From: an uncultured Candidatus Binatia bacterium | GTDB taxonomy: Bacteria > Desulfobacterota > Binatia > Bin18 | Reading direction: 5' to 3' | Assembly: GCA_965214755.1 (NCBI GenBank) | Contig: OZ243979.1 | Location: forward strand, 3,530,229 to 3,594,228 | Length of the DNA stretch: 64,000 nucleotides | Part shown: positions 355 to 38,851 of the stretch, piece by piece | How the letters are laid out: the number at the start of each line of letters is the position of its first letter | How positions within the stretch are numbered: the first letter of the stretch is position 1 | Program-made: the position numbers and the translations under genes | The notes under the pieces: model-generated | The model's database searches: none | What the model saw: the letters and a program-made list of their open reading frames with translations, nothing else | What the model was told of the DNA's origin: nothing

Positions 355-408
355 AAAGAGTAAACGCGTCCTCTTCATGGTACAAGGCTGTTGACACGTT
401 TTCCTTCC
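355..408 (-). repeat. HPE hairpin element copy 0 (degenerate, orientation B)
   Basis: aaagagtaaacgcgtcctcttcatggtacaaggctgttgacacgttttccttcc. Left arm matches the family consensus; right arm is decayed. Sits in a divergent intergenic region. Confidence 0.6.
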
Positions 409-485
409 TTGTGGGTATACCCTACCCGCTTCGGTTCAAGAGCACCATTGCCGCGGGTTCCCGCCTGACCTATGCTGCCTTACTC

Positions 486-1598
486 ATGCAGGTCCGTTTG
501 CTCACCCAATTCGAGACGCCGCCGGCGCAAAGCGTGGCCACGGACCGGTATTTTCTTCACACCGTGATTGAGACGCAGCTTCCAGTCCTGCGCGTTTGTA
601 CGTATCCAGATGATGTGCTGCTGCTGGGTCGGTATCATGCTGCCGGCGCACAAAGCGGAAACGTGTCAACATCTCGGGTCAGATTGGAGGACACGTTTCC
701 GCTTCTCAGACCAGACCCAGGTCTGACGATTATCCGGCGTCTGACTGGCGGACGAGCCTTTCCGAGTGGCAACGGGTTTGTCCAATTTTCACTCATCGTG
801 CCGCACCGTTCATTTTTCTTTTCCGCCGACCCGCAGCACATCGCGCCGTTTCAGATCCTTAACCGTTACGTCCGCGGGGTGCTGCACGGCCTGAAAACAG
901 GTGGAGTTGAAGTCTTTTATCCAGGCCAGGATTTTCTGACGGTCCGGCGGCTGCCGGTTGGCTGGCACTCTTTTGTGACAGAGGACAGCGGAGCCGTGCT
1001 GTATGAAGGAGGTGTGTTTGTCCAGCGGGATATGAGTCTCCTGCCCCATTTGCTTGACCGGGCGGACCCGCAGGGGACGCTTCCCTGCCAGCTCTTTATG
1101 CCGGATCAAGTCCACAATCTTGGCAAAGTCCTCGGACGATCTCTTGCACCGGACCAGGTCGTTCGTCTGCTCCGGAACGGCTTTACTCAGCAGTTCGGGC
1201 TGGAATGCCTCGACCAAGACCTCAATCCAAACGAGCGTGCGGCCATTCCGGGAAAACAGGAACGGTCTGACCCCATTCCGAACCGGCGTCCTCCACGCTC
1301 CGACCTCCCATACGTAGCAACGAGGCAAACTCCACTTGGAGAACTCCAGATTCGTTTCGCTCTCACTCCCGAGCGGACAATCGAGACGATCCAGTTCTCG
1401 GGCGACTTCATTGCCAATCCGGCCGGGATGCAAGCGTTGGAGCACAATCTCAAAGGTTGTCCACTGGAGAAAGCCGCACTCTGGCAGGTCATTGATGGGA
1501 CGTTTCTTGATCCAGAGCATTATCTGATCGGGGCGGGGAAGTTAGCCGACTTACCCGGATTGCTGCTAAGCGCTTCTCCGGTCCCGCCCGCCAGGTAG
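486..1598 (+). CDS. biotin/lipoate A/B protein ligase family protein (LplA-like) with long C-terminal extension
   Basis: ORF 411..1598. ATG 486 (MQVRLLTQFE...) preferred because family members start close to this segment. RRLTGGRAF..GNGF resembles the RRxSGGGAV.HD.GN ligase motif (from memory). Carries HPE copy 1 in frame. Confidence 0.6.
   Translation: MQVRLLTQFETPPAQSVATDRYFLHTVIETQLPVLRVCTYPDDVLLLGRYHAAGAQSGNVSTSRVRLEDTFPLLRPDPGLTIIRRLTGGRAFPSGNGFVQFSLIVPHRSFFFSADPQHIAPFQILNRYVRGVLHGLKTGGVEVFYPGQDFLTVRRLPVGWHSFVTEDSGAVLYEGGVFVQRDMSLLPHLLDRADPQGTLPCQLFMPDQVHNLGKVLGRSLAPDQVVRLLRNGFTQQFGLECLDQDLNPNERAAIPGKQERSDPIPNRRPPRSDLPYVATRQTPLGELQIRFALTPERTIETIQFSGDFIANPAGMQALEHNLKGCPLEKAALWQVIDGTFLDPEHYLIGAGKLADLPGLLLSASPVPPAR
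652..704 (+). repeat. HPE copy 1 (orientation A), intragenic and in frame
   Basis: aaagcggaaacgtgtcaacatctcgggtcagattggaggacacgtttccgctt. Arms AAGCGGAAACGTGTC / GACACGTTTCCGCTT pair perfectly over 15 bp. Two positions differ from consensus on both arms in a compensatory way. Confidence 0.85.
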
Positions 1599-1601
1599 GC
1601 T

Positions 1602-2486
1602 ATGGAATCTACTCAGAACACCACCCTCCAACTCGACCAGCTTGCAGCCGGACTGCTCGCCGACGATGACCACACACGACTTTCGGCGCTCGATCGACTT
1701 GAGGCGGAGAGAACACTAACGTCTCTCCCACAAGATGTGATGCGTAATCTTCTCGCGTGTCTGGGACATACGACGAAAAAAATACAACGCGGTGCGGCGA
1801 CCGTCCTCACCCGCTTTGCCTCCCGACAGCCTGAAATTATCGAGGCACTGACATACAGGCTGACGGACCCGAACCCGCGGCTGCGCTGGACCGCGGCTTT
1901 TACCCTCTCTCAGCTCGACCTGCCGAGCCCCTCGCCTCAAAGAGTAAACGTGTCCTCCAATCAGACACTACTGCTGGACACGTCTACTCTTCTTCCCGTT
2001 TTGATCGAGAACCTGGGACACCAGGAAAGTGACCTGCGCTGGGCCGCGGCAACCGCTGTCTTGCAGCTCGCCCAGCGCTGTTCTCAAGACGTTGCTCACG
2101 CCATGATCCGGCTTGTGCATACGGGTAATGCCGTGCAACGCCGCATGGCTCTCTACTGCCTGCGCGACCTGAAGCAAACGGATCAAGCGGCCCAGGAAGC
2201 CTATCTGACGAGCCTGAATGACGCGGACCCAATGGTTCGCCTCGGCGGTCTATCCTGTTTGGGTAAGCTCCGATTGACCAGCAGAGCAATTCGAGAAGCG
2301 ATTCTCCGGCTTTTAGAACACGACCCGGACATGGGTGTCCGTCGTTCGGCTGCCATGACCTGCGGACAGATAGGCGACACGGACACACATATCGTTGAGG
2401 CGTTACAGCGAACGGTTCAATCGGCTGACACCAGCCTCAGAAAAGCATCGACCGGAGCACTCAGGCAACTGCCGACCGACTCGTAA
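1602..2486 (+). CDS. HEAT/ARM-like repeat protein
   Basis: 294 aa ORF. Repeated motif of the type D.D..VR..AA.aLg.. (e.g. DPNPRLRWTAAFTLSQL, DADPMVRLGGLSCLGKL, DPDMGVRRSAAMTCGQIG). Carries HPE copy 2 in frame. Confidence 0.75.
   Translation: MESTQNTTLQLDQLAAGLLADDDHTRLSALDRLEAERTLTSLPQDVMRNLLACLGHTTKKIQRGAATVLTRFASRQPEIIEALTYRLTDPNPRLRWTAAFTLSQLDLPSPSPQRVNVSSNQTLLLDTSTLLPVLIENLGHQESDLRWAAATAVLQLAQRCSQDVAHAMIRLVHTGNAVQRRMALYCLRDLKQTDQAAQEAYLTSLNDADPMVRLGGLSCLGKLRLTSRAIREAILRLLEHDPDMGVRRSAAMTCGQIGDTDTHIVEALQRTVQSADTSLRKASTGALRQLPTDS
1940..1992 (-). repeat. HPE copy 2 (orientation B), intragenic and in frame
   Basis: aaagagtaaacgtgtcctccaatcagacactactgctggacacgtctactctt. Translated as [19 protein letters not shown] within the HEAT-repeat ORF. 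Confidence 0.85.
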
Positions 2487-2569
2487 CGGGCTGCCATTCT
2501 TCTTGTAATTGACGCGCCCCGCGGGCAGGTCTCGCCGGTGACCGGGATCAATCTTGACGCGCGTTCTTG

Positions 2570-2680: not shown

Positions 2681-2691
2681 TGGTGACGACG

Positions 2692-3382: not shown

Positions 3383-4213
3383 TCATTCCGTGGCCTTTTG
3401 TTCATCGTAGGTTTGATCGATCCGTTCAAACCGTCGCCGGATGGGCGTCCGGCTTTCCTCGTGGGGCAGGATGTAGAGTTGGTTGGCAACAATGGCATCC
3501 ACGACTTGCGTTGCAACATCCTCCACATTCAGGACCCGCCCGGCGAGATTCGGATTGTCTTCTCCCTGGTCGAGCACGGGCGGTGACGCCTCCGGACCCC
3601 CTAGTTCGTCGGGACGATTGCGCTCCGAGTGACCAATATTGGTTGCCACGCGCATCGGACACAGGACAGACACGCCGATAGCGTGCGCCCGCAGTTCTCG
3701 GCGCAGGACTTCGGCTAAAGCCACGACTCCATACTTGGACACACAGTACGGACCAAGCCCGACATTGGGGACGAGACCGGCAAACGAGGCGGTAAACAGC
3801 ATGTGACCGCCCTGACCTTGGGCGATCATGCGTTGCGTAAAGGCTTCAACACCGTGGATCGGACCCCATAAATTGACCCGTAGGGTCCACTCCCAGTCGC
3901 TATGCTGCATCTCAGCGATTGGCCCGCCAACGGCAACCCCAGCATTATGGAACACAATATGCACCGCGCCCATTTTTTCAAACGCAGTGTCAGCCAGGTG
4001 TTGAACGGCCTTCAGGTCGCCGACATCGCAGACTACTCCCTCTACGGCGGTTCCCGTCGCCGCTAGTTCGGCGACTGCCCGGTCCAAGGCCGCCTCTTCA
4101 ATATCGGCTAACACGAGTCGGACGCCTCGACTGGCAAGGCGGCGGGCAGTGGCAAATCCTATCCCACTTGCTCCACCCGTGATGACGGCAACTTTGGCGG
4201 TGAGGTGTTCCAT
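3383..4213 (-). CDS. short-chain dehydrogenase/reductase (SDR)
   Basis: TGGASGIG cofactor motif, NAGV, and catalytic YCVSKYG (YxxxK). Confidence 0.9.
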   Translation of the reverse strand: MEHLTAKVAVITGGASGIGFATARRLASRGVRLVLADIEEAALDRAVAELAATGTAVEGVVCDVGDLKAVQHLADTAFEKMGAVHIVFHNAGVAVGGPIAEMQHSDWEWTLRVNLWGPIHGVEAFTQRMIAQGQGGHMLFTASFAGLVPNVGLGPYCVSKYGVVALAEVLRRELRAHAIGVSVLCPMRVATNIGHSERNRPDELGGPEASPPVLDQGEDNPNLAGRVLNVEDVATQVVDAIVANQLYILPHEESRTPIRRRFERIDQTYDEQKATE

Positions 4214-4218
4214 ACTTC

Positions 4219-4270
4219 AAAGAGTAAACGTGTCCTCCAATAAATACAAACTGTTGACACATTTACTCTT
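4219..4270 (-). repeat. HPE copy 3 (orientation B on +, A in the sense of the SDR gene)
   Basis: aaagagtaaacgtgtcctccaataaatacaaactgttgacacatttactctt. Ends 5 nt from the SDR ATG (4213-4211). Confidence 0.85.
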
Positions 4271-4309
4271 CATTCCCTTTCCTGTGTCGGGCAGCGTATG
4301 CCACCTTCC

Positions 4310-6019
4310 TTACGCAACGACCAGAAGCCCCTCAACAAAGCGGAGATCGGCGGTCTGAATATCGATGGTCAGGACCTCTTCAATCTTGTCACGGGCGTAG
4401 GTCACAAGGGGGCCAAGGGCGTACAACTCCTGTGGTGTGATTACGAGCGGTGAGCGGCGAGCCCCCCCTATGAAGGGGGGTTGGGGGGATAGAAAGTGCG
4501 TTTGGAACGTCTCCCAACGTTTTTCGAGGGTGGCATGCGGAAGCCGGTCGTGAAGCGCCTGAAGCTCAGCCCGGTTCAAGGGGTGAATAGTGAGCTGATT
4601 TTCGAGGACCCAACGTGCAAAGGCCGTATTCCAGAGAGCGGTCAGCCCGACTCCCTCAGTCGCCGTTTCTTCGGGCAGTATGCCCCAGCGCCGGAAGACC
4701 CGGAACCAGGTCGGGATCTGGGCCAGCAGCGATTCGACCTGCCGCACTTCAGACAGGTGTCCAAAGCGTCGGGACACGATTTCGCCGGGCGTCTCCAGCC
4801 CGACAAAAAAGAGCGGCTCGCGTCGCTTGATCCCGGCATACATTTCCCGAAACGGCGGATCGAGATAGCTCTCCCATTCGGGCATCTCCTCTAACTGCGC
4901 GTCCATGAGACTGGCCTGATGCTGAAGCCGCTGTAACAAGCCCCAGCCAGTCTGGAAGAACGGACGAATTCGTGTCGTTTGGAGAAGCTCGCGCGCCGCT
5001 GTCTCATCTTCTTTGGCCGCATAGGACAGGCCAATATTGACATAGTCGTGCGCCATGCCAACGCAGCGACGAATTTCGCTGACTTCTCCGGTATCCCGGG
5101 CCTCAGCCGTGACAATACTATTGGTCAGATAGGCAAGTTCCTGACCGATCTGCGCAATCGTCCGGCGTGGCAGGCGCGCCAATACCTGGGAGAAAAAGGA
5201 CGTAGGCTCGACGAGTAGCGCCAAAGCGTGATCGGGTGGCGTAATCGTGGCGTCCCCGGTAGCAAGATGCAGCGTGTCGGGAATGCGTTGATAGGCCTGT
5301 AACGGAATGGAGTCCGGCGGGATAAAGCGGAAGAGCGCTTGCGCCTCTTCATATCTCGGATAGCCACGATCTTCGAGGCGCGCCGCCCGCCAGCGAAACG
5401 CCTGCTCTTCAAGGCCGCTTTCGAGTTCAAACAAACTGTTTTCGAGCGCATGGAGATACCGGCGGTAATCAAGTGTGCGGAGCTGCTCAAGCAGGAGGTA
5501 GAGAATCGGTTCTGACTTGCCCCGGAAGCGGAGCAGATACTGCTCATCGAAGGTGAAATATTTTGACTCGTCAAAGTCAGGCTCCTCCTCGATATCCACT
5601 TTGCGGACCACCTCAAAGTGGCGTTGAATCAGGAGGACCAGGAGTTCGATGTCGGCGTGCAAAATCCATTCAGCCAGCTTACTGCTTCCGCTCTCATCGA
5701 GCAGCATCAGCCAGTTCGTTAAGCGTCCGTCATCCAATCTGTCCTTGCGCCAACAGTCCAGATCCAACATGTCACGCACCTGTTCAGGCGACGCCAGTGC
5801 CAGGAGTCCAACCGCATCGTGCAGCCCAATCTCCTTGAGGGTGTACAACAAGGTCTCAGAGGAGAGCGCCCGGACTATTGCCACACCGTTCTTTGCCGAG
5901 AGGAGGAACTCTTGCCGCTCCTTGACATCAAGCTGTACCAACTGGGCAGCTTGCTCGGTGACTGATAGCTCGGGCAGACCGGCCAAGTCAGGATGGAGCA
6001 CCTGCTCAGAATCTGCCAT
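4310..6019 (-). CDS. conserved hypothetical protein (569 aa)
   Basis: ORF 4310..6121. ATG at 6019 (MADSEQVLHPDLAGL...) preferred. Long uninterrupted frame with protein-like composition. Family not named with confidence. Confidence 0.7.
   Translation of the reverse strand: MADSEQVLHPDLAGLPELSVTEQAAQLVQLDVKERQEFLLSAKNGVAIVRALSSETLLYTLKEIGLHDAVGLLALASPEQVRDMLDLDCWRKDRLDDGRLTNWLMLLDESGSSKLAEWILHADIELLVLLIQRHFEVVRKVDIEEEPDFDESKYFTFDEQYLLRFRGKSEPILYLLLEQLRTLDYRRYLHALENSLFELESGLEEQAFRWRAARLEDRGYPRYEEAQALFRFIPPDSIPLQAYQRIPDTLHLATGDATITPPDHALALLVEPTSFFSQVLARLPRRTIAQIGQELAYLTNSIVTAEARDTGEVSEIRRCVGMAHDYVNIGLSYAAKEDETAARELLQTTRIRPFFQTGWGLLQRLQHQASLMDAQLEEMPEWESYLDPPFREMYAGIKRREPLFFVGLETPGEIVSRRFGHLSEVRQVESLLAQIPTWFRVFRRWGILPEETATEGVGLTALWNTAFARWVLENQLTIHPLNRAELQALHDRLPHATLEKRWETFQTHFLSPQPPFIGGARRSPLVITPQELYALGPLVTYARDKIEEVLTIDIQTADLRFVEGLLVVA
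4462..4488. repeat. C-run/G-run mini-palindrome P1
   Basis: CCCCCCC-TATGAA-GGGGGG-TT-GGGGGG inside the CDS, read on the minus strand as PQPPFIGGA. Confidence 0.7.
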
Positions 6020-6869: not shown

Positions 6870-7625
6870 TCAGTCCCTCACCCTTCCCATTAAGGAGAGC
6901 GTGACCGCCGCAGCCTCTGGGCTGGGCAGGGAAGGGGTTTTCCCCGGAAGCAGCATAAAGTCGTCATAGGCCGCTTCGGATACACTGGTCATCGTGTCGG
7001 AGTCCGAGAGCACGGCGATACCGCGCACCTCTCCCGGTTCAAAGCCAAAAAGGTCTTTATAGTCCTGGTAGAAATTAATGGTTTCTTGTCGCCATTCACC
7101 AGGCTCGGCTGGTCCACGCTGTAAGACGACAACCTTGGCGCGCCAATAGACCGGACTGTCGAAACGCGTACCAACCGCGAGCGTCGAACTCCAGACGTAT
7201 TTAATCACGCGCGGCATGAGGAGGCTGTCAAATATCACGTAGACGGCCGCGGCCGAATCATTCGTTTTTTTTACGCGTTCGTCGGCACCAGGAGGGAGTT
7301 TGGTTGCGCGCCAACGCCAGCGCAAGATGGGATAGTCCTGTGGCTTACATGTATACTCTATGCCGATCTGGACATCCTGGTTGTTGGCATACGCATGGAG
7401 AAATCGATTGCCCTCTTCTTCGGCAATACGGTAGACGGCCTGCGCCGTCGCTTCGTTGCCACGTACTTTCCAGCCCGACGGGAATACGCCAGTCGGGTAG
7501 TGTTGAAAGGTCTCCTGAAAAGGCGTCAAGCCCTGGAGTGTCTGCGCTATCCCAGCATCAGGATCGGCTGTTCTGGGAGTCAACACGCAGGCGAGCAGGA
7601 ATAGTGTGAACCACGTAACATGCAT
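6870..7625 (-). CDS. secreted DUF3047-like protein
   Basis: ATG 7625 preceded by GGGAGG. N-terminal signal-like MHVTWFTLFLLACVL. The LRWRWR... segment is recalled from DUF3047. Confidence 0.6.
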   Translation of the reverse strand: MHVTWFTLFLLACVLTPRTADPDAGIAQTLQGLTPFQETFQHYPTGVFPSGWKVRGNEATAQAVYRIAEEEGNRFLHAYANNQDVQIGIEYTCKPQDYPILRWRWRATKLPPGADERVKKTNDSAAAVYVIFDSLLMPRVIKYVWSSTLAVGTRFDSPVYWRAKVVVLQRGPAEPGEWRQETINFYQDYKDLFGFEPGEVRGIAVLSDSDTMTSVSEAAYDDFMLLPGKTPSLPSPEAAAVTLSLMGRVRD

Positions 7626-7850
7626 TCTCGCCTCCCTAATCCTTTTTGTTGACCGAGCCGGGCCCGAACCGTGTTCCAATGAGCCATTGTGAATAGAAGC
7701 ATGGATAGAGGAAGGACCACTGGAGTGCAAGTCCGACCAGGATGGCCGCTCTCTCGGCATTGGCACGTCTCCCGGGACTATGGTATCTAGGCGGCACGCT
7801 ATCGAGAATAAGCAAAGACCTGTTCGAGCTTTTTGAGGAGGCTGCTGCAC

Positions 7851-12540: not shown

Positions 12541-12595
12541 GAAGAGTACACGTGTCCTCCAATCGTTTATACAAAGCTGGACACGTGTACTCTTT
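12541..12595 (-). repeat. HPE copy 4 (orientation B), intergenic
   Basis: gaagagtacacgtgtcctccaatcgtttatacaaagctggacacgtgtactcttt. Perfect 16 bp arms with a compensated A>C / T>G pair relative to consensus. Confidence 0.9.
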
Positions 12596-12603: not shown

Positions 12604-12873
12604 CTAGGCGACCCAGCCATACTGAAAGGTATGGATCGTGCCGGGCGGATACCACCACTGGCCGGTCTGACATAAGGGACACGTTTTTGGCGTGGACCCC
12701 CGTTTATATTCCGGGACACCGGCCATGGCTTGCACTGCGCCTTCAAAGGTCCCATCTCGGGTGACCTTCTTCGTCAGCAAGTAGAGTCCCATGCCACAAT
12801 CAGGACACGACAGAATCGTGCCGGCATTCAAAAACGGGAGCGAAGTAATCTGATCCGGGAAGGGCTGCGGCAT
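12604..12873 (-). CDS. small zinc-ribbon protein (89 aa)
   Basis: ATG 12873 preceded by GGAGGGGACA. CPDC...CPLC cysteine pairs. Confidence 0.55.
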   Translation of the reverse strand: MPQPFPDQITSLPFLNAGTILSCPDCGMGLYLLTKKVTRDGTFEGAVQAMAGVPEYKRGSTPKTCPLCQTGQWWYPPGTIHTFQYGWVA

Positions 12874-12889
12874 TGTCCCCTCCAAATAC

Positions 12890-14164
12890 TCAGACCCGCC
12901 GTTGGCGCTGGGTCTGCTGCGCCTGAGCCGCAAACTCAGACGGCTTCATAATGAGCGAGCCTTTGGATTCTTCCTGTTGGTGTTGCTTTTCTTCCGTGTA
13001 GTGCAGGCCGATGCTCTGCTGGACCAATCCTTCACAAAAGGGAATGCCACTGCCACTCGCCCCCTCTTTTTGGAGGGCAAGCGACACGGCCAGGGCGCGT
13101 TGGGCTGACGTTACACGTCCGGTTGCCGCAAAATACAGCGCCATTTCTTCCAAGCGCCGTGCGTAGACCTGACCGCTCTCCCCTGAGAACACTTCGGCAA
13201 TCGCTTGTTTGATGACATCGTCCACCCGGTCTTTTTGCTGGTGCTGATTCAGCACCAAGGGGCTCTCCTGCGCACTGGTTATCTTTTCGACATAGGGCTT
13301 GGCCTGTTCAGCGTCAAACACCCACCGCTGCATTTCCGGCTCTTCGGCAAGCTGGATGGATGTGGCCAGGAACGTTTCGTCGGCGGCGACCGTCTGACGA
13401 TCTACACTGTCCGGTAGTGGCACTGTTTGGGGTAAAGAGTGAACGTGTCCAGCTTCGTCGGAACGATTGGAGGACGCGTTTACTCTTTCTGTCGGCGTAG
13501 TTAAAACAAAAGACCGAAGCGCGGGGTAGGATTCGACCTCTTTTTTGTCCTGTTCCTTGGCCCGTTCATAGCCTTCCTGCATCAGAAAAGCACAATACTG
13601 CCACGACACCTGAACCATGGTCACGCCGCGGTGGTTGAGCAAGTCCTGAAGCACCTGACGCAGCGTTTTTCTCGATATTTCCGTGCCATCAATAGAGCGC
13701 ATCCCCTCGGGCTCGTTGATTAGCGCAGACAAGAAATGCAGCCCGCCGCCAACACGCGATTTCACTATCCAAACGAGGCGATCACCGCGCCCATCCATTG
13801 CGGACAGATACCCTTCCGGTTCAATCGGGGTGAGAATGGACTTGCCCGCTCCCTTTTGCGGTCGGTCGGTCTGTATCCCTTTTTGCGACAGGCGATAGAG
13901 GGCACGGCTAATCTCTTTACGTAAACGCTTATCAGTGGCCTGCTCTGTCCAATCCACTAGGAACTGGGCCGACTCTGCCGTCTGGACCTCGCCCAGTAAA
14001 GCGGCCAAAGCCACGTCGGCGTCAGCATCCTGTCCTATGCGCTCACGCAGGCTGGCAATATCCAGGCTACGGTCTTGTCCGGCAGAGGGCTGAATTCCCC
14101 ATTCTTCCAGCGCTTTTTTGCCTCGTGCCAGGCATGGGTCGTGCTTCGCACTCTTTTTCGCCAT
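12890..14164 (-). CDS. hypothetical protein (424 aa)
   Basis: Long ORF with protein-like composition. No family recognised. Carries HPE copy 5 in frame. Confidence 0.65.
   Translation of the reverse strand: MAKKSAKHDPCLARGKKALEEWGIQPSAGQDRSLDIASLRERIGQDADADVALAALLGEVQTAESAQFLVDWTEQATDKRLRKEISRALYRLSQKGIQTDRPQKGAGKSILTPIEPEGYLSAMDGRGDRLVWIVKSRVGGGLHFLSALINEPEGMRSIDGTEISRKTLRQVLQDLLNHRGVTMVQVSWQYCAFLMQEGYERAKEQDKKEVESYPALRSFVLTTPTERVNASSNRSDEAGHVHSLPQTVPLPDSVDRQTVAADETFLATSIQLAEEPEMQRWVFDAEQAKPYVEKITSAQESPLVLNQHQQKDRVDDVIKQAIAEVFSGESGQVYARRLEEMALYFAATGRVTSAQRALAVSLALQKEGASGSGIPFCEGLVQQSIGLHYTEEKQHQQEESKGSLIMKPSEFAAQAQQTQRQRRV
13434..13488 (+). repeat. HPE copy 5 (orientation A), intragenic and in frame
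   Basis: aaagagtgaacgtgtccagcttcgtcggaacgattggaggacgcgtttactcttt. Read on the minus strand as ERVNASSNRSDEAGHVHSL. Confidence 0.85.
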
Positions 14165-14293: not shown

Positions 14294-15481
14294 ATGGCGA
14301 CAGCGCGTTTTTGTCCACAGTGCGGGACAAAGACTATCCCCAAAGCACATTTCTGTACGAATTGTGGGGAAGCCCTTGGAGGCAAGGCCGGTGGGCAGCA
14401 GGCCCAGAAATCGGCCACCCCATCAGCGGCAGGCGCCCAGCGGTTGCCACTCCCCGGCCTCATCGTTTTGTCCTGCTACCTCGCCGTGGGTATCGGACTC
14501 TGGGTATTTGTCCTGCGGACAGAGCCGTTCGCCCCGACCCCGACCGGTTCCCCTCAAGCCAGTACGGGCGGCTCGGCCTTGCCCCAGAATCATCCCGAGG
14601 TTGCCTTGCCCGAGGAGGTGAAGAGGCGTATTGCGGAACTGGTTGCCCAGGCCAATGCCGCCCCGCAAGACCCCAACGCCTGGCGGACTCTGGCTGAAGT
14701 CCAGTTTCGGGCGTCGCAGCTTGATGCCAGCTATCGCAGTGCGGCCCTGGCTTCCTATCGCAAGCTGTTTGAGCTTGCCCCGAGTGATCTGGATGCGCTG
14801 CGCGGCTTGGGGAATGTCTACTACGACCTTGAGGAACATCACCAGGCGATCGAGTATTATCAGCGCTACTTGGCGCTGAAACCGGATGATGCCAGCGTGG
14901 CGACCGACCTCGGGACCATGTATCTCTATACCGGCCAGGTCGACCAAGCCATCGCGTTCTATCAATCCGTCCTGGCCAAGCAGCCAACCTTCTTTCAGGC
15001 CCATTTTAACCTGGGGGTTGCCTACCAAGAGAAGGGTATGCCCGACCAAGCGGTCGCCTCATTACAGCAGGCCAAGAGTCTGACGGATAACACGGCCATT
15101 CAGGCCCGTATCGACCAGCTCCTGGAACAATTCTCGAACGGGACGGCCCCATCCCGAACCGCATCACCCCCCCCTAATAGGGGGGGGCAGGGAGAGGCGT
15201 CACCGTTTCAGCAAGCAGTGGAAGCGCTCTTTCGCTCGCATGAAATGATGGCGCCCAAAATCGTCCGTATCGAGTGGCTGTCGCAAACCCAGGCCAGGGT
15301 CTTCTTTCGCAATTTTCCCATGGCTGGTATGCCTCAGACTGTCCGAGACAGTTTCAGAGAAAAACTTCAGAGCCAGCTTAGCGCCGCCCGGCAAAAGACC
15401 GGTAGCAGTGGCTTGGCGACCGTTGAGCTTATCGATATTGATACCCGGCAAGTCATGGAGACTCTCACGACTCCCTCATAA
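14294..15481 (+). CDS. zinc-ribbon / transmembrane / TPR-repeat protein
   Basis: N-terminal CPQCG...CTNCG, a hydrophobic segment (LIVLSCYLAVGIGLWVFVL), then TPR-like repeats (NVYYDLEEHHQAIEYYQRYLALKPDD etc.). Confidence 0.8.
   Translation: MATARFCPQCGTKTIPKAHFCTNCGEALGGKAGGQQAQKSATPSAAGAQRLPLPGLIVLSCYLAVGIGLWVFVLRTEPFAPTPTGSPQASTGGSALPQNHPEVALPEEVKRRIAELVAQANAAPQDPNAWRTLAEVQFRASQLDASYRSAALASYRKLFELAPSDLDALRGLGNVYYDLEEHHQAIEYYQRYLALKPDDASVATDLGTMYLYTGQVDQAIAFYQSVLAKQPTFFQAHFNLGVAYQEKGMPDQAVASLQQAKSLTDNTAIQARIDQLLEQFSNGTAPSRTASPPPNRGGQGEASPFQQAVEALFRSHEMMAPKIVRIEWLSQTQARVFFRNFPMAGMPQTVRDSFREKLQSQLSAARQKTGSSGLATVELIDIDTRQVMETLTTPS
15167..15187. repeat. C-run/G-run mini-palindrome P2
   Basis: CCCCCCCC-TAATA-GGGGGGGG (followed by CA-GGGAGAGG) inside the TPR CDS, read as SPPPNRGGQGE. 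Confidence 0.7.
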
Positions 15482-15535
15482 AAGAGTACACGTGTCCAGC
15501 TTTGTATGAACGATTGGAGGAGACGTTTACTCTTT
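15481..15535 (+). repeat. HPE copy 6 (orientation A), between the TPR gene and the AAA+ gene
   Basis: aaagagtacacgtgtccagctttgtatgaacgattggaggagacgtttactcttt. Its first base is the last base of the TAA stop (15479-15481). Confidence 0.9.
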
Positions 15536-16379: not shown

Positions 16380-16595
16380 GTTTATTGCCCGGTCTACTGA
16401 AGGCGTACCAGGCGAAGACTCTTCTCCGTATCAAAACTCAGCGCTCTTGGGTAAACCAACACACAGATGGCGCAATATGCCAAGGAGTAGAAAATCGAAG
16501 AGGTTGGGGGGTGTTTTTCTGCAATCGCCCATACTGTCGGCGAAAGGCGACTGGCAGACAAGACATGGAGGGCATCTGTCGCGTAGGGCCATGAT

Positions 16596-18029: not shown

Positions 18030-18752
18030 TCACACCCCAATGATCTCCCGGGCCGTGCGGAAGACGGCATGGAACATGGGCTGTGTGAGCCGCCCGGTAA
18101 AGGTGTTCTGTTGGCTGGGATGGTAGGAACCAATGAGGGTGACGCCATCCAAATCGTAACGCCTGCCATGTCCGAATTTTGGTCTGGGCGTCGGAACCCG
18201 CAGGCCGACTTCTCGCCGGGCTTTGAGATAGGCTGAAAAAGCCAACTGTCCCAGCGCCACAACGACCCGGACCTGTTTCAGCAGTTGGATTTCCCGTAGC
18301 AAATAGGGTTGACAGGCTTCGAATTCGTCTCGCGACGGCTTGTTGTCCGGCGGTGCACAGTGGACGGCCGCGGTGATATACGCGCCCTGTAACCTGAGGC
18401 CATCATCAATATGGATTGAGGTCGGCTGGTTGGCGAAGCCAGAGGCGTGTAATGCACCGAACACCCAGTCCCCGCTGCGATCTCCGGTAAACACCCGCCC
18501 CGTTCGGTTGCCGCCATGCGCCGCTGGCGCAAGGCCGACAATATACAGGCGAGCGGTGCGGTCACCAAGGCTCGGGACCGGCTTGCCCCAATAGTCCCAG
18601 GCGCGGTAGCGTTTGACTTTATCCTGGGCCGTACGCTGGCAGTGCCGGATGAGCCGGGGACAGCGCCGGCAGGCAACGATCCGGCGTTGGAGTTGGGCGA
18701 TGGTCCGCGAAGAGTAAACGTGTCCAGCTTTTTTGTCTGTATTGGAGGACAC
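18030..18752 (-). CDS. uracil-DNA glycosylase superfamily protein (family 4/5; GLAPA motif suggests family 5)
   Basis: CRRCPRL...GLAPAAHGGNRTGRVFTGD...SYHPSQQN. The only in-frame start is the GTG at 18752, inside HPE copy 7. Confidence 0.8.
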   Translation of the reverse strand: MSSNTDKKAGHVYSSRTIAQLQRRIVACRRCPRLIRHCQRTAQDKVKRYRAWDYWGKPVPSLGDRTARLYIVGLAPAAHGGNRTGRVFTGDRSGDWVFGALHASGFANQPTSIHIDDGLRLQGAYITAAVHCAPPDNKPSRDEFEACQPYLLREIQLLKQVRVVVALGQLAFSAYLKARREVGLRVPTPRPKFGHGRRYDLDGVTLIGSYHPSQQNTFTGRLTQPMFHAVFRTAREIIGV

Positions 18753-18763
18753 GTTTACTCTTT
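18709..18763 (+). repeat. HPE copy 7 (orientation A), spans the 5' end of the glycosylase gene
   Basis: gaagagtaaacgtgtccagcttttttgtctgtattggaggacacgtttactcttt. Confidence 0.9.
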
Positions 18764-20329: not shown

Positions 20330-20383
20330 AAAGAGTAAACGTGTCCAGCATCTACATGCTGTTGGAGGACACGTTTACTCTTT
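20330..20383 (+). repeat. HPE copy 8 (orientation A)
   Basis: aaagagtaaacgtgtccagcatctacatgctgttggaggacacgtttactcttt. A partial half-site, aaaagagtattacgc, lies at about 20299-20313. Confidence 0.9.
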
Positions 20384-20548: not shown

Positions 20549-20602
20549 AAAGAGTAACCGTGTCGTCCACCCTTGTCTGATTAGTGGACACGTTTACTCT
20601 TT
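20549..20602 (+). repeat. HPE copy 9 (orientation A, divergent loop)
   Basis: aaagagtaaccgtgtcgtccacccttgtctgattagtggacacgtttactcttt. Confidence 0.8.
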
Positions 20603-20921: not shown

Positions 20922-20978
20922 AAAAAAAATATCACCGCCATCATTACCATGAATAAAGGTTGGGCGGTGATATTTTTT
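20922..20978 (-). terminator. hairpin flanked by A/T runs downstream of korB (possible bidirectional terminator)
   Basis: AAAAAAAATATCACCGCC-(23 nt loop)-GGCGGTGATATTTTTT. The large loop lowers confidence. Confidence 0.5.
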
Positions 20979-21034
20979 GCCCCCGGCTCGTCACACACCG
21001 CGACAAACAGGGGCCTTCTCAACTGTTGACAAGA

Positions 21035-25868: not shown

Positions 25869-26081
25869 TTAGGCGTTCTCCTCTTTATATATTTCCAGCC
25901 AGGCCATTTGGATGGCTTCGAGTTTGCCCTCACTCGACTCCTGGGGGTCGTCGCTGAAATCCTCCAGGGCGGTGACCCAGCGGAGCAAATCGGTAAAACG
26001 GATGCTCAACGGATCGGTCTCGGGCTGCGCTTCGAAGAGCCGCTCGGCAATATCCTCGGGCGTGTCCCAGTATAGCTTCAT
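25869..26081 (-). CDS. iscX: Fe-S assembly protein IscX
   Basis: 70 aa acidic protein, MKLYWDTPEDIAERL...FTDLLRWV. Follows hscA. Confidence 0.8.
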   Translation of the reverse strand: MKLYWDTPEDIAERLFEAQPETDPLSIRFTDLLRWVTALEDFSDDPQESSEGKLEAIQMAWLEIYKEENA

Positions 26082-26101
26082 GACTCCCTCCCGTGCGGTT
26101 G

Positions 26102-27925
26102 CTATAAGTCGGAGAGCTGTTTCTCACCCAGCGCCTCCTGGATTGAAGAGTCCATAATCCGTTGGGCAAACGGCGTTGTCACCTGGCTCAACTCCTCGGT
26201 CAGGTCTCGGATCAGATCGTAGTCTTCTCCAGCGCACGCCTCCCGGACCTTTTGCACGACCTGAGCAATCTGCTCTTCCTCACCCTCTTGCAGAAACGAG
26301 GCATTCTGGCTCAGGGCTTTGTCGGTGGCGTGCAGCACGGTATCGGCTTCAGTCCGGGCCTCAATCAGCAAACGCTGCTCAATGTCTTCCTCCGCAAAAT
26401 CTATGGATTCTTCCAGCAGCCGCTCCACCTCTTCGTCGGTCAAGCCATAGGACGGTTTCACTTCAAGCGAACGTTCGAGCCCGGTTCGTAAGTCGGTTGC
26501 GGAAACGTTCAGAATACCGTTGGCGTCGATCATAAACGTCACTTCGACGCGGGGAACTCCGGCCGGCTTGGGCTCAATGGGAATGGAGAAGCGGGCCAGG
26601 CTGCGACAATCCTGGACCAGTTCGCGTTCTCCTTGCAGGACATGAACGGCGACCGCGGTCTGGTCATCAACCGCGGTAGTGAACATTTCCTTCACGCTTG
26701 CCGGGATCGTCGTATTGCGTTCAATGAGGTGACTCATGACCCCGCCCATGGTCTCAATCCCTAAGGATAACGGCACCACATCGAGCAGCAGCATATCCCG
26801 CCGCCGCCCGGACAAAGTATCCGCCTGGACCGCTGCTCCGAGGGCAACGACCTCATCCGGGTCGATATCGGTGAGTGGTGTCCGACCAAAAAATTCCCCC
26901 ACCCGCTGGCGCACCAGCGGCATGCGGGTCGAGCCACCGACCAGGACGACTTCTTCAATATACTGGGTCTCAAGACCGGCATCTTTGAGCGCCTGCCGAC
27001 ACGGCTCCAGCGTGCGAGCCACAATCTCGTCCACCGCGGCTTCCATCTCGTGACGGGTCAGGCGGCGAGAGAGCTGAACGCCTTTGTCCGGGACAGTCAG
27101 ACTGAGGGTTGTCTCGTCCTGCTCGGATAAGACCTGCTTGGCCTTTTCGGCAGCACGTAGCGCACCATTCAGCACCTGCAAGTCGCCGCGCAGGTCTTCG
27201 GCCAGTTCCGCCAGGATAAAGCGCTCGGCTATACACTGATCGATATCGTCACCACCCAAGCGGGTGTTGCCGTTGGTGGATAACACTTCGAAGATGCCGG
27301 TGTGGAGCCGCAGAATCGACACATCAAACGTGCCCCCGCCAAAGTCATACACCGCAATCAGCCCCTCTTCTTTTGCATTGAGGCCATAGGCGAGAGAGGC
27401 GGCCGTCGGTTCGTTGAGGAGGCGAATGACCTCAAGGCCGGCCAGCTTGCCGGCGTCTTTGGTCGCCTGACGCTGCGAGTCGTTGAAGTACGCCGGGACG
27501 GTAATGACCACCTTACGGACCTCTTCCTGGAGTACCGTCGCGGCCCGGTCCCGCAAGGCACGGAGAATAACTGCCGAGACCTCCGGTGGTGTCACCTGCC
27601 GGTCGTGGAGGGCAAAACGGACCAGACTGGCGGAGTCCTCTTGATCGTCAACAAAGCGATACCGCTGCCGGTCCTCAGGACTCACATGCTCCATACCGAG
27701 GCCCATAAAGCGCTTCACCGACCGAATGGTTGAGAGCGGTTGTGTTCGGGCTAACTCGCCCGCCTCCCGGCCAACAACAACCCGGTCGTTGGGCAAAAAA
27801 CTGACGATAGACGGGAGCGTCTTCTGCCCAGTTCCGCTATCGGCAATGACCCGCGGGCCAGCGTCGTCTGCACTCGCAATCAGACTATTGGTCGTCCCCA
27901 GATCAATCCCAACTATAGGTTCCAC
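26102..27925 (-). CDS. hscA: Fe-S cluster assembly chaperone HscA (Hsp70 family)
   Basis: GIDLGTTNS..., DEPTAA, Hsp70 architecture. isc operon context. Confidence 0.9.
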
Positions 27926-27941
27926 GATTCGCCTCTATTTT

Positions 27942-28601
27942 TCACAAGGTGGAGAGGGCCTTTTTCACGTCGCGTGTTAATGTCCGCAGATAGGCCATAT
28001 CCGACAGCACCCGTTTCAGTTCGCTCAAGAGTTCAGCCGCACCGTTCGTCTGCCCCCATTTGGAGAAGTTTGCCCCCAGCTTTCGCTGCAATTCCTGCAT
28101 CCGGTCGTCTAGATCATCTCGTACCTGCGTCACCTCAGCTTTGAGCCCCGCCAGCGCGTCATCGGTTCCGGCACTCTGGGCTTCCCGGACGGCTGCCAGC
28201 TTTTCCTGCACCTCAAACACGAAGAGGGCCAACTCAGGGGGGACTGTATTATTTTCCTTGCCGAGGTGTTCTCCGTTGAGCTCAAGCCAGTACCGGCCGC
28301 GCTGGACAGGATCGCGCAGTGTCCGGTAGGCCCGGTTCACCAGCGCCGTATTCTGAAGGCTCGCTTCCTGCTCCTCCGCAGCCCCGATCTGGTGCAGGTC
28401 CGGATGGAGTTGGCGGCTCAGATCGTAATACGTCTTGGCAAGCGCCTGCTCATCAAGCATCGGATCCCGGGCCAAACCAAAGACCGCGAAATAGTCAATG
28501 TCTGGAGGTAAAAGTTGAAGAGCCTCGCAGGCCGGGCAGAACAGCTGGGGCGTATGCTCGTCCTGACAGCGCCAGCAGCGCACCACCGTCGGCGTTGGCA
28601 T
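27942..28601 (-). CDS. hscB: co-chaperone HscB with N-terminal CxxC..CxxC zinc ribbon
   Basis: J-domain with HPD (QLHPDLH). Position between iscA and hscA. Confidence 0.85.
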   Translation of the reverse strand: MPTPTVVRCWRCQDEHTPQLFCPACEALQLLPPDIDYFAVFGLARDPMLDEQALAKTYYDLSRQLHPDLHQIGAAEEQEASLQNTALVNRAYRTLRDPVQRGRYWLELNGEHLGKENNTVPPELALFVFEVQEKLAAVREAQSAGTDDALAGLKAEVTQVRDDLDDRMQELQRKLGANFSKWGQTNGAAELLSELKRVLSDMAYLRTLTRDVKKALSTL

Positions 28602-28612
28602 AGTGTGTTAGG

Positions 28613-28960
28613 CTAGACAGAGAATGAGCTACCGCAGCCGCACGAGCGTTTGATATTGGGATTCGTCAGCTTAAAGCCCGAATCCATTAAGGTCTCGGAA
28701 AAATCCAGCTCTGTCCCGCGGAGATAGATAAAGCTTTTGCGGTCAACAATCACTTTGGCACTTTCCCGTTCAAAAACGCGGTCGCCGTCACGGGGAATAT
28801 CCAGGTCCATCTTATAGGACAAACCCGAACAGCCCCCCCCAACCACCTTGACTCGCAAGCCGCAATCCTGCCGCTCGTCCTGCCCCGTCAGGTCTCCAAT
28901 CTTTTTGGCTGCGTTTTCGCTGATTTCGATTTTGAGCTTTGCTTTCGCGCTTGCTGCCAT
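28613..28960 (-). CDS. iscA: Fe-S cluster insertion protein IscA/HesB family
   Basis: GGGCSG ... CGCGSSF C-terminal motif. Confidence 0.9.
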   Translation of the reverse strand: MAASAKAKLKIEISENAAKKIGDLTGQDERQDCGLRVKVVGGGCSGLSYKMDLDIPRDGDRVFERESAKVIVDRKSFIYLRGTELDFSETLMDSGFKLTNPNIKRSCGCGSSFSV

Positions 28961-29002
28961 GCCCGTTGTCCCAATCTGCTGCTGGTTTCCGTGCGGCCTT
29001 GT

Positions 29003-29404
29003 CTAGGCGGCATCCTTCTTGGGTGCGTCCTGTCCCCGCCAGTCCGCCACCGCCGCCTTGATCGCATCCTCCGCTAACACCGAACAGTGAATCTTCACCG
29101 GCGGTAACGCTAACTCCTCCACGATCTGCGTGTTCTTGATCGCCCCCGCCTCGGCCACCGTCTTCCCCTTCACCAACTCCGTCACATAACTCGACGACGC
29201 AATCGCCGACCCACACCCAAAGGTCTTGAACTTCGCATCTTCGATCACTTCCGTCTGCGGGTTGATCTTCAACTGCAACTTCATCACGTCCCCGCACTCC
29301 GGGGCTCCCACCACGCCCGTGCCCACGTGCGCTTCCCCGCTCCCAAAACTCCCCACGTTCCGCGGCCGCTCGTAATGCTCTATGACTCGCTCGGTGTAGG
29401 CCAT
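29003..29404 (-). CDS. iscU: Fe-S scaffold protein IscU
   Basis: GAPECGDVMKL, FGCGSAIASSS, LPPVKIHCSVLAEDA. Confidence 0.95.
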   Translation of the reverse strand: MAYTERVIEHYERPRNVGSFGSGEAHVGTGVVGAPECGDVMKLQLKINPQTEVIEDAKFKTFGCGSAIASSSYVTELVKGKTVAEAGAIKNTQIVEELALPPVKIHCSVLAEDAIKAAVADWRGQDAPKKDAA

Positions 29405-36351: not shown

Positions 36352-36756
36352 TTATTCCTCGGCGTCTTTCTGTTCTTCTTCAACAAAGTGTTCATATTCC
36401 TCGGCGGTCATGAGCGCGGCCAGCTCCTCGGGATCATTCATCTCCACCTGGACCAGCCAGGCGTCGCCGTACGGGTCTTCATTGATCGTCTCCGGCGTGT
36501 TCTGCAACTCAGTATTGACTTCTTTGACCGTACCACTCACCGGAGCGTAGATGTCAGACACGGCTTTGACCGATTCAACCACGCCAAAGGGCTCATCTTG
36601 GGTGAGCTGGGTATCAGGCTCGGGCAACTCAACAAACACGACATCCCCAAGCTGGTCTTGGGCGTAATCGGTGATGCCGATGGTTGCCAGATTATCCTCC
36701 TCCACCAAGACCCACTCGTGCTCCTGTGAGTAGCGTAACTCCCTTGGGGCTTCCAT
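36352..36756 (-). CDS. gcvH: glycine cleavage system H protein
   Basis: Lipoyl-lysine motif VESVKAVSDIYAPVSG. Confidence 0.95.
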   Translation of the reverse strand: MEAPRELRYSQEHEWVLVEEDNLATIGITDYAQDQLGDVVFVELPEPDTQLTQDEPFGVVESVKAVSDIYAPVSGTVKEVNTELQNTPETINEDPYGDAWLVQVEMNDPEELAALMTAEEYEHFVEEEQKDAEE

Positions 36757-36767
36757 AACCTCCTCCC

Positions 36768-37919
36768 TTACTTACTCCTCCGATAAAATGGCGGCTTGAT
36801 GACCGTCGCCGGAATATGGCGATTCCGGATCGCAACTGCCAGCGGTGTCCCAGAAGAGTAAACGTGCCCAGCTTTGTTGGTTTGGAGGGCGCGTTTACTC
36901 TTTTCGTCCGCGCACGACGGGGAAACATAGCCTAACGCAATACCAACGCCCAGCATGGGAGACTGGGTGCCACTCGTCACCACCCCGACCTGACGTTGAC
37001 TCTTTTGTTCACTCCAAATCGCATACCCCTGGCGAGGAATGCCAGCGCCTTCCATCCTGATCCCCACCAGGTGTTTTTCAATCCCATCAGCCTGCTGCTT
37101 GCGCAATGCCTCGGACCCAATAAAGGGGCCGGCCTCAAAATGGACGAGACGCTGTAAACCAGCCTCCAGCGGCGTGGTATGGGCATCAATATCGTTGCCA
37201 TATAAGAGATAGCCGGCCTCCAGGCGGAGCGTATCTCGTGCTCCCAGGCCGACGGGGACCAGGTTCGCCGCACCTCCTGCCTCGCCGCACGCCTGCCAGA
37301 TATGTTCAGCCCGCTCAGCCGGGACAAACAGCTCAAAGCCATCTTCCCCGGTATAGCCGGTCCGTGCCACAAGAGTCGGCACCCCGGTTACCTCCCCCTG
37401 GGCCGCCCAATAGCGACGAATGGCCGAAAGATCGTGTGATGTCAGCCGAGACAGAACCGTCTCCGCCTGCGGACCCTGGAGGGCGACCAATGCGTACTCG
37501 TCACTCCGGTCAATCACCTCAGCCCGGCCGCGATTGTGCTCTACCATCCACTCGTAGTCGGTCGTGCGGTTGGCGGCGTTCACACACACCAGATAGCGTT
37601 CCTCGGCCAGGCGATAGATAATGACGTCGTCGACTATGCCGCCATCGGCAAAACACATGACCGAGTACTGGGCCTGCATGATCCGTATGCGGGCAATATC
37701 GGTAACGAATAATTCCTGACAGACCTCATACGCCCGAGGACCGGCTATTTCGATCTCGCCCATATGGCTCAGATCGAACAGGCCGACCTGTGTCCGCACG
37801 GCCCGGTGTTCGGCAAGAATCCCGGTATACTGCACGGGCATCTGCCAGCCACCGAATTCAATCATGCGCGCCCCCACGGCACGATGCAGCTTATACAGCG
37901 GCGTTCGGTTGGCCCCCAT
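36768..37919 (-). CDS. gcvT: glycine cleavage system T protein (aminomethyltransferase) with a 17-codon HPE insertion near the C-terminus
   Basis: RTPLY..H...GA.M.EF.GW.MP..Y N-terminus, C-terminal ..V.IRN...PA.V.K.PF. Operon context. Confidence 0.9.
   Translation of the reverse strand: MGANRTPLYKLHRAVGARMIEFGGWQMPVQYTGILAEHRAVRTQVGLFDLSHMGEIEIAGPRAYEVCQELFVTDIARIRIMQAQYSVMCFADGGIVDDVIIYRLAEERYLVCVNAANRTTDYEWMVEHNRGRAEVIDRSDEYALVALQGPQAETVLSRLTSHDLSAIRRYWAAQGEVTGVPTLVARTGYTGEDGFELFVPAERAEHIWQACGEAGGAANLVPVGLGARDTLRLEAGYLLYGNDIDAHTTPLEAGLQRLVHFEAGPFIGSEALRKQQADGIEKHLVGIRMEGAGIPRQGYAIWSEQKSQRQVGVVTSGTQSPMLGVGIALGYVSPSCADEKSKRALQTNKAGHVYSSGTPLAVAIRNRHIPATVIKPPFYRRSK
36853..36903 (+). repeat. 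HPE copy 10 (orientation A), inside gcvT, exactly 51 bp
   Basis: gaagagtaaacgtgcccagctttgttggtttggagggcgcgtttactcttt. GCCC/GGGC replaces GTCC/GGAC (compensated). Confidence 0.85.
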
Positions 37920-37920
37920 A

Positions 37921-38790
37921 TCACATCCGAACGTTGGTCTGCCTTTCCGCAGCCTGGACAGTGTTGGCTAAGAGCATGGCAACAGTCAGCGGTCCGACCC
38001 CGCCTGGGACAGGAGAAATATAGGCGGCGCGTTCCTTGGCAATAGCGAACTCCACATCCCCTTTCAGCGACCCATCAGGACTCCGCGAGATGCCAACATC
38101 AATGACACCTGCTCCGTGTTTTATCCAGTCCCCTTTGATGGCGTCAATTTGCCCGACTGCGGCCACGACAAGATCGGCCTGGCGGATGTGGTCGGCGAGG
38201 TCGGCCGTGTGCGAGTGGCAGCTCGTCACGGTCGCGTTTCGCTCCAGTAACAGGAGAGCCAACGGTTTGCCAACCAGATTGCTGCGACCAACGACGACCG
38301 CGCGTTTGCCCTCGATAGCCATCCCGCTCTGTTCAATGAGATGCATCACCCCCAGCGGGGTGCAGGGGCGGAGCCCGGCCTGGCCTAATACCAGGCGGCC
38401 CTGATTCACCGGATGGAGCCCGTCAACGTCCTTGTCCGGCCGGATAACCTCAATCAGAGACGCCGAATCCAAATGATCCGGCAGCGGAAGTTGGAGCAGA
38501 ATACCGTTGACATCGGGACGTGCGTTGAGCCGATCAATGAGCGTAGTGACTTCGTCGGCTGATGCGGTCGCCGGCAGGCGATGGCCGAACGGCGCAATAC
38601 CGACCTCACGGCAGGCTTTTTCCTTGGCGTCAACATAGGCGCACGAGGCCGGGTCCTCGCCGATCAGAATCGTTGCCAGCCCCGGTTGCCAGTCGTGGCG
38701 GCCCTGCTGTTGCCGAATCTGCGCAATGCGTTCCTTCAGGCCCCGGCGGACTGTCTGCGCGTACTGCTTTCCATCAAGTATCACACCCAT
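37921..38790 (-). CDS. folD: bifunctional methylenetetrahydrofolate dehydrogenase/cyclohydrolase
   Basis: MGVILDGKQYA... N-terminus. PGGVGP.T near the C-terminus. Confidence 0.9.
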   Translation of the reverse strand: MGVILDGKQYAQTVRRGLKERIAQIRQQQGRHDWQPGLATILIGEDPASCAYVDAKEKACREVGIAPFGHRLPATASADEVTTLIDRLNARPDVNGILLQLPLPDHLDSASLIEVIRPDKDVDGLHPVNQGRLVLGQAGLRPCTPLGVMHLIEQSGMAIEGKRAVVVGRSNLVGKPLALLLLERNATVTSCHSHTADLADHIRQADLVVAAVGQIDAIKGDWIKHGAGVIDVGISRSPDGSLKGDVEFAIAKERAAYISPVPGGVGPLTVAMLLANTVQAAERQTNVRM

Positions 38791-38795
38791 GCTAC

Positions 38796-38851
38796 AAAGA
38801 GTAAACGTGTCCAGCTTTTTTATATCTCATTGGAGGACACGTTCACTCTTT
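38796..38851 (+). repeat. HPE copy 11 (orientation A on +, B in the sense of folD)
   Basis: aaagagtaaacgtgtccagcttttttatatctcattggaggacacgttcactcttt. Ends 5 nt from the folD ATG (38790-38788). Confidence 0.9.

Follow-up and report, generated by a model that had tools for sequence, protein, structure and literature searches.

The window analysed here is a stretch of 64,000 nucleotides from contig OZ243979.1 (positions 3,530,229 to 3,594,228; assembly GCA_965214755.1) of an uncultured Candidatus Binatia bacterium, and its first 38.9 kb hold 12 copies of a short palindromic repeat that probably belongs to a clade-specific family of non-autonomous mobile elements of about 54 bp. A search of the window for the arm sequence GGACACGTTTACTCTTT, with up to three mismatches allowed and shuffled sequence as the control, returned 24 matches where shuffling predicts 0.06, and these resolve into 12 inverted pairs and one stray match. 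A covariance model built on 120 oriented copies, and run on the window with filters off, recovers precisely 12 copies, eight with the loop in the plus and four in the minus orientation, and none beyond position 38851. The original prediction, made from the letters of the window, had placed 12 copies with inverted arms, an asymmetric loop and an 8:4 orientation, and all of this is borne out; only some ends needed correction, as the second copy ends at 705, the third starts at 1939 and the fourth ends at 4271. It had also drawn attention to the last 25 kb. These are indeed free of copies, but the gap is statistically weak (p = 0.033 among 12 random points), and the non-coding fraction of the copy-free part is similar (12% vs. 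14%).

The consensus has the layout AAAGAGTAAACGTGTCC-AGC...(A)TTGGA-GGACACGTTTACTCTTT, with 17-bp inverted arms around the asymmetric loop. Its length is most often 54 nt and ranges from 51 to 59 nt. On folding, the consensus forms a single 17-bp stem (-17.5 kcal/mol as DNA and -26.8 kcal/mol as RNA, with z between -7 and -8.6), and the 17-nt arm has no internal palindrome except ACGT. Four of the six reading frames are open, and a TAA is carried in one frame from either end of the element. No described family had been recognised at the outset, and none was found in Rfam (no family at gathering score and only sub-threshold hairpin look-alikes), among plasmids and viral contigs, or through a literature search with the consensus, which returned no papers. 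Searches for tRNA and tmRNA genes found none.

Several loci sampled from other genomes (designated by L numbers) are syntenic with the window at 83–92% identity and were aligned with it site by site. Four copies lie within ORFs (open reading frames) and keep the frame, as originally described. The copy at 652..705 (plus orientation) consists of 54 nt, or 18 codons, in the catalytic domain of a lipoate-ligase-like protein (ORF 411-1598; the Pfam domain LplA-B_cat spans aa 38–258), and the L052 ortholog lacks precisely this 54-nt stretch and has a gap-free junction there. For this protein, phmmer found no sequence relative in the PDB. The copy at 1939..1992 (minus) lies between HEAT repeats of ORF 1602-2486 and is present in L052, while the copy at 13434..13488 (plus) is read through by ORF 12890-14164 on the minus strand (424 aa, no Pfam hit); it is present in L091 and L076, and L015 is 54 nt shorter at the site. 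The fourth, a 51-nt copy at 36853..36903 (plus), falls in the C-terminal barrel domain encoded by gcvT (ORF 36768-37919, minus strand). The Pfam GCV_T_C match there extends over 98 aa, compared with a profile length of 79; the 17-aa insert, EKSKRALQTNKAGHVYS, is absent from the Bacillus T-protein (PDB 1yx2), and the alignments with other solved GcvT homologues end just ahead of it. The genes of the intervals 25869-29404 and 36352-37919 are of housekeeping type, with Pfam matches to NifU_N, Fe-S_biosyn, Fe-S_assembly and the glycine-cleavage T and H proteins.

The other eight copies are found at or between gene ends. The copy at 355..408 (minus; 31.9 bits) fills the divergent intergenic gap beside the lipoate-ligase-like gene; it is present as claimed, but degenerate, and it is also present and degenerate in the ortholog L052. 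Two copies stand 5 nt from an ATG, in agreement with the original prediction: the intergenic copy at 4219..4271 (minus), upstream of the ATG at 4213 of a short-chain dehydrogenase gene, and the copy at 38796..38851 (plus), in a divergent intergenic region upstream of the ATG at 38790. L032 is an empty site for the first of these, with a gap-free junction and no duplication. When window positions 4204-4275 are set against L032 4902-5133, the empty allele is seen to have a purine-rich AAGGGA motif 9 nt upstream of the dehydrogenase ATG, and the copy separates this motif from the start codon; folding of the stem could therefore restore the spacing. Stop codons are provided by two copies, again as stated earlier. 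The first base of the copy at 15481..15535 (plus), which lies between a TPR gene and a CbbQ/NorQ-type AAA gene, completes a TAA at 15479-15481, and L015 retains only a 5' remnant of this copy (AAATAGAGTAAACGAGT; L015 about 5816-5832). The copy at 20549..20602 (plus) provides the final codons and the stop of ORF 20581-20907 (minus strand), and it is absent in L045 and L029; at this site L015 (2151-2439) instead has ~50 nt of unrelated, AT-rich sequence (...CTGATAATCCTATAATCCTTTAATCC...). The intergenic copy at 18709..18763 (plus), which is present in L015, contains the GTG at 18752 that opens an ORF of the UDG family, so that the provision of a start codon by a copy holds to the extent that this ORF-finder call does. 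Two further copies are intergenic: one at 12541..12595 (minus), 8 nt past the stop of ORF 12604-12933 (minus strand), present in L076 and absent with a messy junction in L091, and one with perfect arms at 20330..20383 (plus), present in L015 and L045. Between the copies at 15481 and 18709, a segment of ~1.65 kb (16380-18029) with a lower G+C content (about 53%) is absent from the syntenic L015, has no gene-model call and looks like an accessory insertion; its ORF 16596-17381 (minus strand, 261 aa) has no Pfam hit.

The wider spread that the original prediction had asked about was found. An exact-arm scan with one genome per species listed at least 112 loci, 109 of which belong to at least 21 genome bins with the label Candidatus Binatia or Binatota; one bin among the 21 is labelled Thermodesulfobacteriota, and several are closed long-read chromosomes of 3.9–5.7 Mb. 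Listed loci from a Bradyrhizobium (L012), an actinomycete (L050) and a Rhizobium (L090) proved to be single-arm chance matches rather than copies. A profile search of 960 kb found 170 full-length copies and a dozen truncated ones. In metagenome contigs, a relaxed two-arm pattern returned mostly chance palindromes, with real copies in 25 of 120 loci. The family is probably specific to a clade of Candidatus Binatia. Copies beyond the anchor occur about once per 17 kb in the sampled loci and once per 5 kb in the window, densities that extrapolate to an estimated several hundred copies per genome. The loci around the copies are rich in paralogous genes for oxidoreductases, CoA-transferases and enoyl-CoA hydratases.

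Comparison of filled and empty sites carries the case for insertion. At shared sites over all loci, there are 24 empty and 120 filled locus pairs. Copies 652, 4219, 13434 and 20549 of the window are each missing in at least one relative, copies 1939, 18709 and 20330 are common to the window and relatives, and the window is itself the empty allele at about 6100, 7575 and 28041, where relatives are filled: the site within 7477..7672 is filled in L032 (739) and L094 (3177), and at the site within 27942..28141 L045 has an in-frame copy (177-230). In 11 empty comparisons, removal of the element as defined by the model leaves a sequence that aligns to the empty allele with zero gaps, which defines the mobile unit as exactly AAAGAG...CTCTTT, 53–55 nt. 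These junctions show neither target-site duplication nor loss of target bases, and direct repeats in the flanks are at chance level. At one identical nucleotide position, two species are filled (L002 5565 and L081 2087) and two loci empty (L078 and L070). The two copies differ in an arm variant (GGAA vs. GTAA), their loops are unlike and their orientation is opposite, which suggests either that this spot received an insertion more than once or that a copy inverted and then diverged. Copies are also lost: in L052, a decaying copy where the ligase-like gene meets the HEAT gene consists of the left arm and a partial loop (7030-7052), L072 has an internally deleted copy (395-425), and these remnants, with that in L015, indicate that loss occurs by deletion and not by substitution alone. 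The presence/absence differences sought in relatives are therefore clean filled and empty sites, and non-autonomous mobile DNA, the first of the roles originally suggested, is well supported by the clean junctions, by the spread of the family and by the absence of the peptide from distant GcvT proteins.

For the relation of copies to genes, genes were called with a self-trained dicodon caller and Pfam; whole-ORF calls were used, as local 120-nt coding scores were too noisy. Sample-wide, 14 copies are clearly intragenic and four more lie near the 3' ends of ORFs, so that about 8–10% are in genes and the remainder in non-coding DNA. All four open frames are used by the intragenic copies, yielding hydrophilic peptides of the type KSKRV...GHVYS or RVNVSS..., and the insertions are tolerated in frame because the element amounts to 18 codons and four of the six consensus frames are open. 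Copies were first described as colonising coding sequence. This does not hold for the sample, where their density is 0.017 per kb of coding and 1.38 per kb of non-coding DNA, a difference of ~80-fold, and the element survives mainly in non-coding DNA. Density peaks between co-directional genes and reaches its minimum between convergent genes (0.68 vs. 1.68 per kb for the convergent regions). In 25 cases, the TAA at arm positions 7–9 is the stop codon of the upstream gene, and the median distance from stop codon to copy is 4 nt.

Among 130 independent sites, A occurs at flank position -6 in two (p = 7e-11) and T at +6 in four (p = 5e-9). There is a weak GC preference at -5/-4 and +4/+5, with a negative association between C at -4 and G at +4 (odds ratio 0.24). 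Positions -1 and -2 carry no information, and the only preferences, weak and symmetric, are at positions 3–6 on each side. These preferences point to symmetric target selection of some kind. Mutual complementarity of positions 1–4 of the two sides is below chance (0.15–0.18). Once fixed, copies change slowly. For 28 independent pairs of shared-site copies, arms diverge by 5.8% and loops by 5.9%, compared with 11.1% in other intergenic flanks and 17.9% at third codon positions (Fisher, loops vs. other intergenic flanks p = 1e-4; loops vs. third codon positions p = 2e-15). Ascertainment favours consensus-like arms but not loops, and it therefore appears that many fixed copies are constrained to some degree, or homogenised, after insertion.

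The arms vary in a compensated manner. The paired changes originally read from individual copies (GCGG/CCGC at 652, GTACACG/CGTGTAC at 12541 and GCCC/GGGC at 36853) are present in the sequence, and covariation is significant family-wide: 120 copies contain 28 double-change cells compared with 6.1 in shuffles, and none of 500 shuffles reaches 28. An independent metagenome sample, in which the outer arm was left unconstrained in ascertainment, gave 22 double-change cells vs. 7.9, and its pair 7 is U-A in 19 copies and G-C in 11 with zero one-sided changes. Compensated changes have also been made in place at shared sites, both between L017 and L089 and at site 20330, where TAA/TTA of the window corresponds to TCA/TGA in L045. 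The further claim, that the hairpin itself is maintained by selection, does not follow from this pattern. One-sided changes of wobble type are equal between the arms (11 G-U and 11 A-C at pair 14), and such symmetry does not hint at selection acting on a single transcribed strand. Moreover, the loop inverts in place, as at five shared sites different species have the same loop sequence in opposite orientations. The same is seen in a hairpin outside the family. Downstream of the gene at 21035-22048 (minus strand), the window has a single-copy, terminator-like hairpin of 57 nt (20923..20979; AAAAAATATCACCGCC...GGCGGTGATATTTTTT; 15.3 bits), and the orientation of its loop in the window is opposite to that in L015 (1894-1950); in L029 (365-416) and L045 (7273-7324), the same interval with its flanks holds a 52-nt copy of the repeat. 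Inversion in the family and in a non-family hairpin implies that arm-to-arm exchange or template switching occurs here. It also explains the nearly random orientation of the copies, which shows a mild bias relative to flanking genes (59:38) and no significant bias relative to GC skew.

Since loops flip in place, templating or conversion of one arm by the other can yield the compensated pattern without selection on the hairpin. A purely mutational origin of the compensation, through quasipalindrome template switching or through conversion that accompanies in-place inversion, is only slightly short of an even call; the opposite loop orientations at the five shared sites, the inversion of the non-family hairpin and the symmetry of one-sided changes all favour it. 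On the other hand, variants such as GAGGAAACG/CGTTTCCTC recur in many copies at different sites, and compensated variants at many sites also fit the idea that mobilisation needs the stem to be paired. Templating and stem selection are not mutually exclusive.

The data show precise, duplication-free insertion, the propagation of matched arms and an indifference to orientation. Under the reading of the family as a mobile element, the element would be moved in trans by an enzyme whose gene lies elsewhere in the genome, and this enzyme, on recognising the hairpin in its folded single-stranded form, would join ends without staggered cuts. The foremost candidate, at well below even odds, is a HUH tyrosine transposase of the RAYT (REP-associated tyrosine transposase) or IS200/IS605 type. 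Several observations weigh against the mobile-element reading. No transposase and no RAYT/Y1 motif was found in the window or in the ~1.1 Mb around copies, where tblastn with E. coli RayT gave chance hits only (one in L087, antisense to an oxidoreductase gene, and one in L034, within a PBP gene) and the motif expression HUH...Y..NPV returned nothing. The mild orientation bias is unlike the strong strand bias of IS200/IS605 elements, and no tetranucleotide is conserved at the 5' flank. Copies per genome are estimates from sampled loci and the window. Finally, the lower divergence of shared copies than of other intergenic DNA is unexpected for freely decaying selfish DNA. The original statement that the window is without a transposase or RAYT gene agrees with these results and with Pfam searches of its small ORFs, which found no transposase family. 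Clustering of 971 predicted locus proteins gave metabolic paralogue families only. ORFs in uncalled gaps, considered as possible transposases, turned out to be an AMP-ligase, an EEP nuclease, a pseudouridine synthase and the translation of a CRISPR array, and solo arms, considered as ends of a full-length insertion sequence, were every one a truncated or internally deleted copy. In L080 (1-1819; OZ242288.1 4280001-), the translation is periodic (GLSPRVRGN / SIPACTGEP / VYPRVYGGT), a CRISPR-array-like pattern.

The nearest competing explanation is a true REPIN/RAYT system, in which a compact doublet of REP (repetitive extragenic palindromic) sequences is moved by a single-copy RAYT located outside the sampled DNA. 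Published REPINs have two conserved inverted ends of ~16 bp, a spacer, a hairpin and frequent compensatory changes (PMC3116915), and the architecture of the element agrees with this, as do the lack of target-site duplication and the vertical persistence across species. Copy number, a mostly extragenic location and a compensated hairpin are likewise REPIN-like. The defining REP features are not present, however. Arm positions 6–9 read GTAA, of which 7–9 vary with compensation, there is no GTAG or CGTC tag, and the arms have no palindrome of their own, as folding gives one long stem. In addition, no RAYT, a Y1 HUH transposase (PF01797) that in REPIN systems shares the genome with the repeats and usually has them on its flanks, was found by the tblastn and motif searches around copies, and 8–10% of copies are intragenic while REPINs are described as extragenic. 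A true REPIN/RAYT system is accordingly considered unlikely, although it fares best among the alternatives for the family as a whole.

Somewhat less probable still is that the copies are host-selected modules of gene boundaries (hairpins that mark the 3' ends of transcripts or stabilise them, stand-ins for a terminator, or modules for stop and restart), with mobility as their origin only. Such a role would fit the conservation of shared-site copies above that of other intergenic DNA, their tight apposition to stop codons, the terminator-like hairpin at 20923-20979 where two relatives hold a copy of the repeat, and the highest density between co-directional genes. It fits poorly with the many presence/absence differences among close species, with copies within unrelated enzymes and with copies that are truncated or have lost internal sequence. 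The orientation of the loop changes at one and the same site, and so no strand-specific loop function is kept. Furthermore, convergent regions, which are rich in terminators, are poorest in copies, and the stem is trailed by only three T. A related and quite improbable proposal is a selected, exchangeable hairpin cassette of gene boundaries, in which hairpins of one set size are inserted, inverted and even swapped at defined sites by a structure-specific mechanism. Read from each end, one frame of such a cassette would contain a stop codon, and its stem could replace a terminator or bridge the ribosome-binding site to the start codon. If true, this proposal would account for the sub-neutral divergence of fixed copies, for the terminator-like hairpin and the repeat being allelic at one site, and for the near-absence of A at -6 and T at +6.

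A dispersed operator for a palindrome-binding regulator is very unlikely. The symmetric, conserved arms and the position of some copies in divergent promoter regions are what an operator might show, but copies are also found within genes and in the gaps between co-directional ones, the neighbouring genes share no function, the presence of sites varies between species, and copies number in the hundreds. Where arm positions are not conserved, their covariation also indicates pairing rather than a protein that reads duplex sequence. The operator and RNA-module roles put forward in the original prediction are not the primary nature of the family, and may apply to some copies. That the intragenic segments are ancestral protein, or the repeat a product of chance or assembly, has nothing in its favour and can be dismissed with near certainty, as the orthologues in L052 and L015 are without exactly 54 nt, solved GcvT homologues are without the segment (the refuting test first proposed for the family, which on GcvT favours insertion), and the same element occurs in 21 independent assemblies, long-read chromosomes included.

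The mobile-element family has several consequences. To our knowledge, no repeat families have been described in Binatota, an uncultured phylum of soil and sediment, and the element offers a ready marker there with which to type strains and follow the dynamics of genomes in long-read bins. Annotation is affected as well, since gene callers will put stops and starts within copies. How hairpin repeats move and persist is an open question for both REPs and RPEs (Rickettsia palindromic elements), and the combination of duplication-free insertion, in-place loop inversion and sub-neutral divergence provides a tractable system in which to address it.

With regard to known systems, the element is an uncatalogued family within the known class of small palindromic mobile repeats and not a new category of system; in defining features it differs from REP/REPIN sequences, DDE-type MITEs (miniature transposable elements with inverted repeats), IS200/IS605 derivatives, attC sites and terminators. 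Integron attC sites, which have R''/R' cores RYYYAAC...GTTRRRY and form arrays of a single orientation beside intI, share only AAC...GTT with the element, whose copies are dispersed, in both orientations and in some cases in core genes. Intrinsic terminators, with their G+C-rich stem, U tract and enrichment past gene 3' ends (convergent pairs included), are likewise rejected, because only three T end the stem and convergent regions have the lowest density. Like the REPINs of, for example, Pseudomonas fluorescens SBW25, the element is present in hundreds of copies, mainly non-coding, and forms a stable hairpin with compensation. However, it measures 54 nt compared with ~90–110 nt for REPINs, and about a tenth of its copies lie in frame in genes. 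Bacterial MITEs (Correia/NEMIS, ERIC and RUP) are similarly short, non-autonomous and mostly intergenic, have terminal inverted repeats and donate stop or start signals. DDE-derived MITEs produce target-site duplications, whereas the element makes none and consists of just two inverted repeats and a loop. With palindrome-associated elements derived from IS200/IS605 (Nezha type) and with the small dispersed repeats of cyanobacteria, it has in common the absence of duplication, the dependence on a hairpin and the tiny size. In those elements, the left and right ends are asymmetric, the 5' flank is a fixed tetra- or pentanucleotide, and there is a strand bias; in contrast, the ends of the element are symmetric, no flanking word is fixed and the orientation bias is weak.

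The RPEs are about 100–150 bp long, nearly half of them are intragenic, and their hosts have reduced intracellular genomes. The element differs from RPE-1 to RPE-10 in each respect, being 51–59 nt long, 8–10% intragenic and found in free-living soil Binatia, a distinction that is drawn from length, location and host. Rickettsia palindromic elements insert in frame in unrelated housekeeping genes, add a conserved peptide and have no known transposase (PMC10969869). In-frame insertion that adds a conserved peptide is also seen in the 18 cases of the sample, four of them in the window. The element is a second clear case, outside Rickettsia, in which housekeeping enzymes tolerate a palindromic repeat in frame, and this tolerance bears on how selfish DNA may give loops to proteins.

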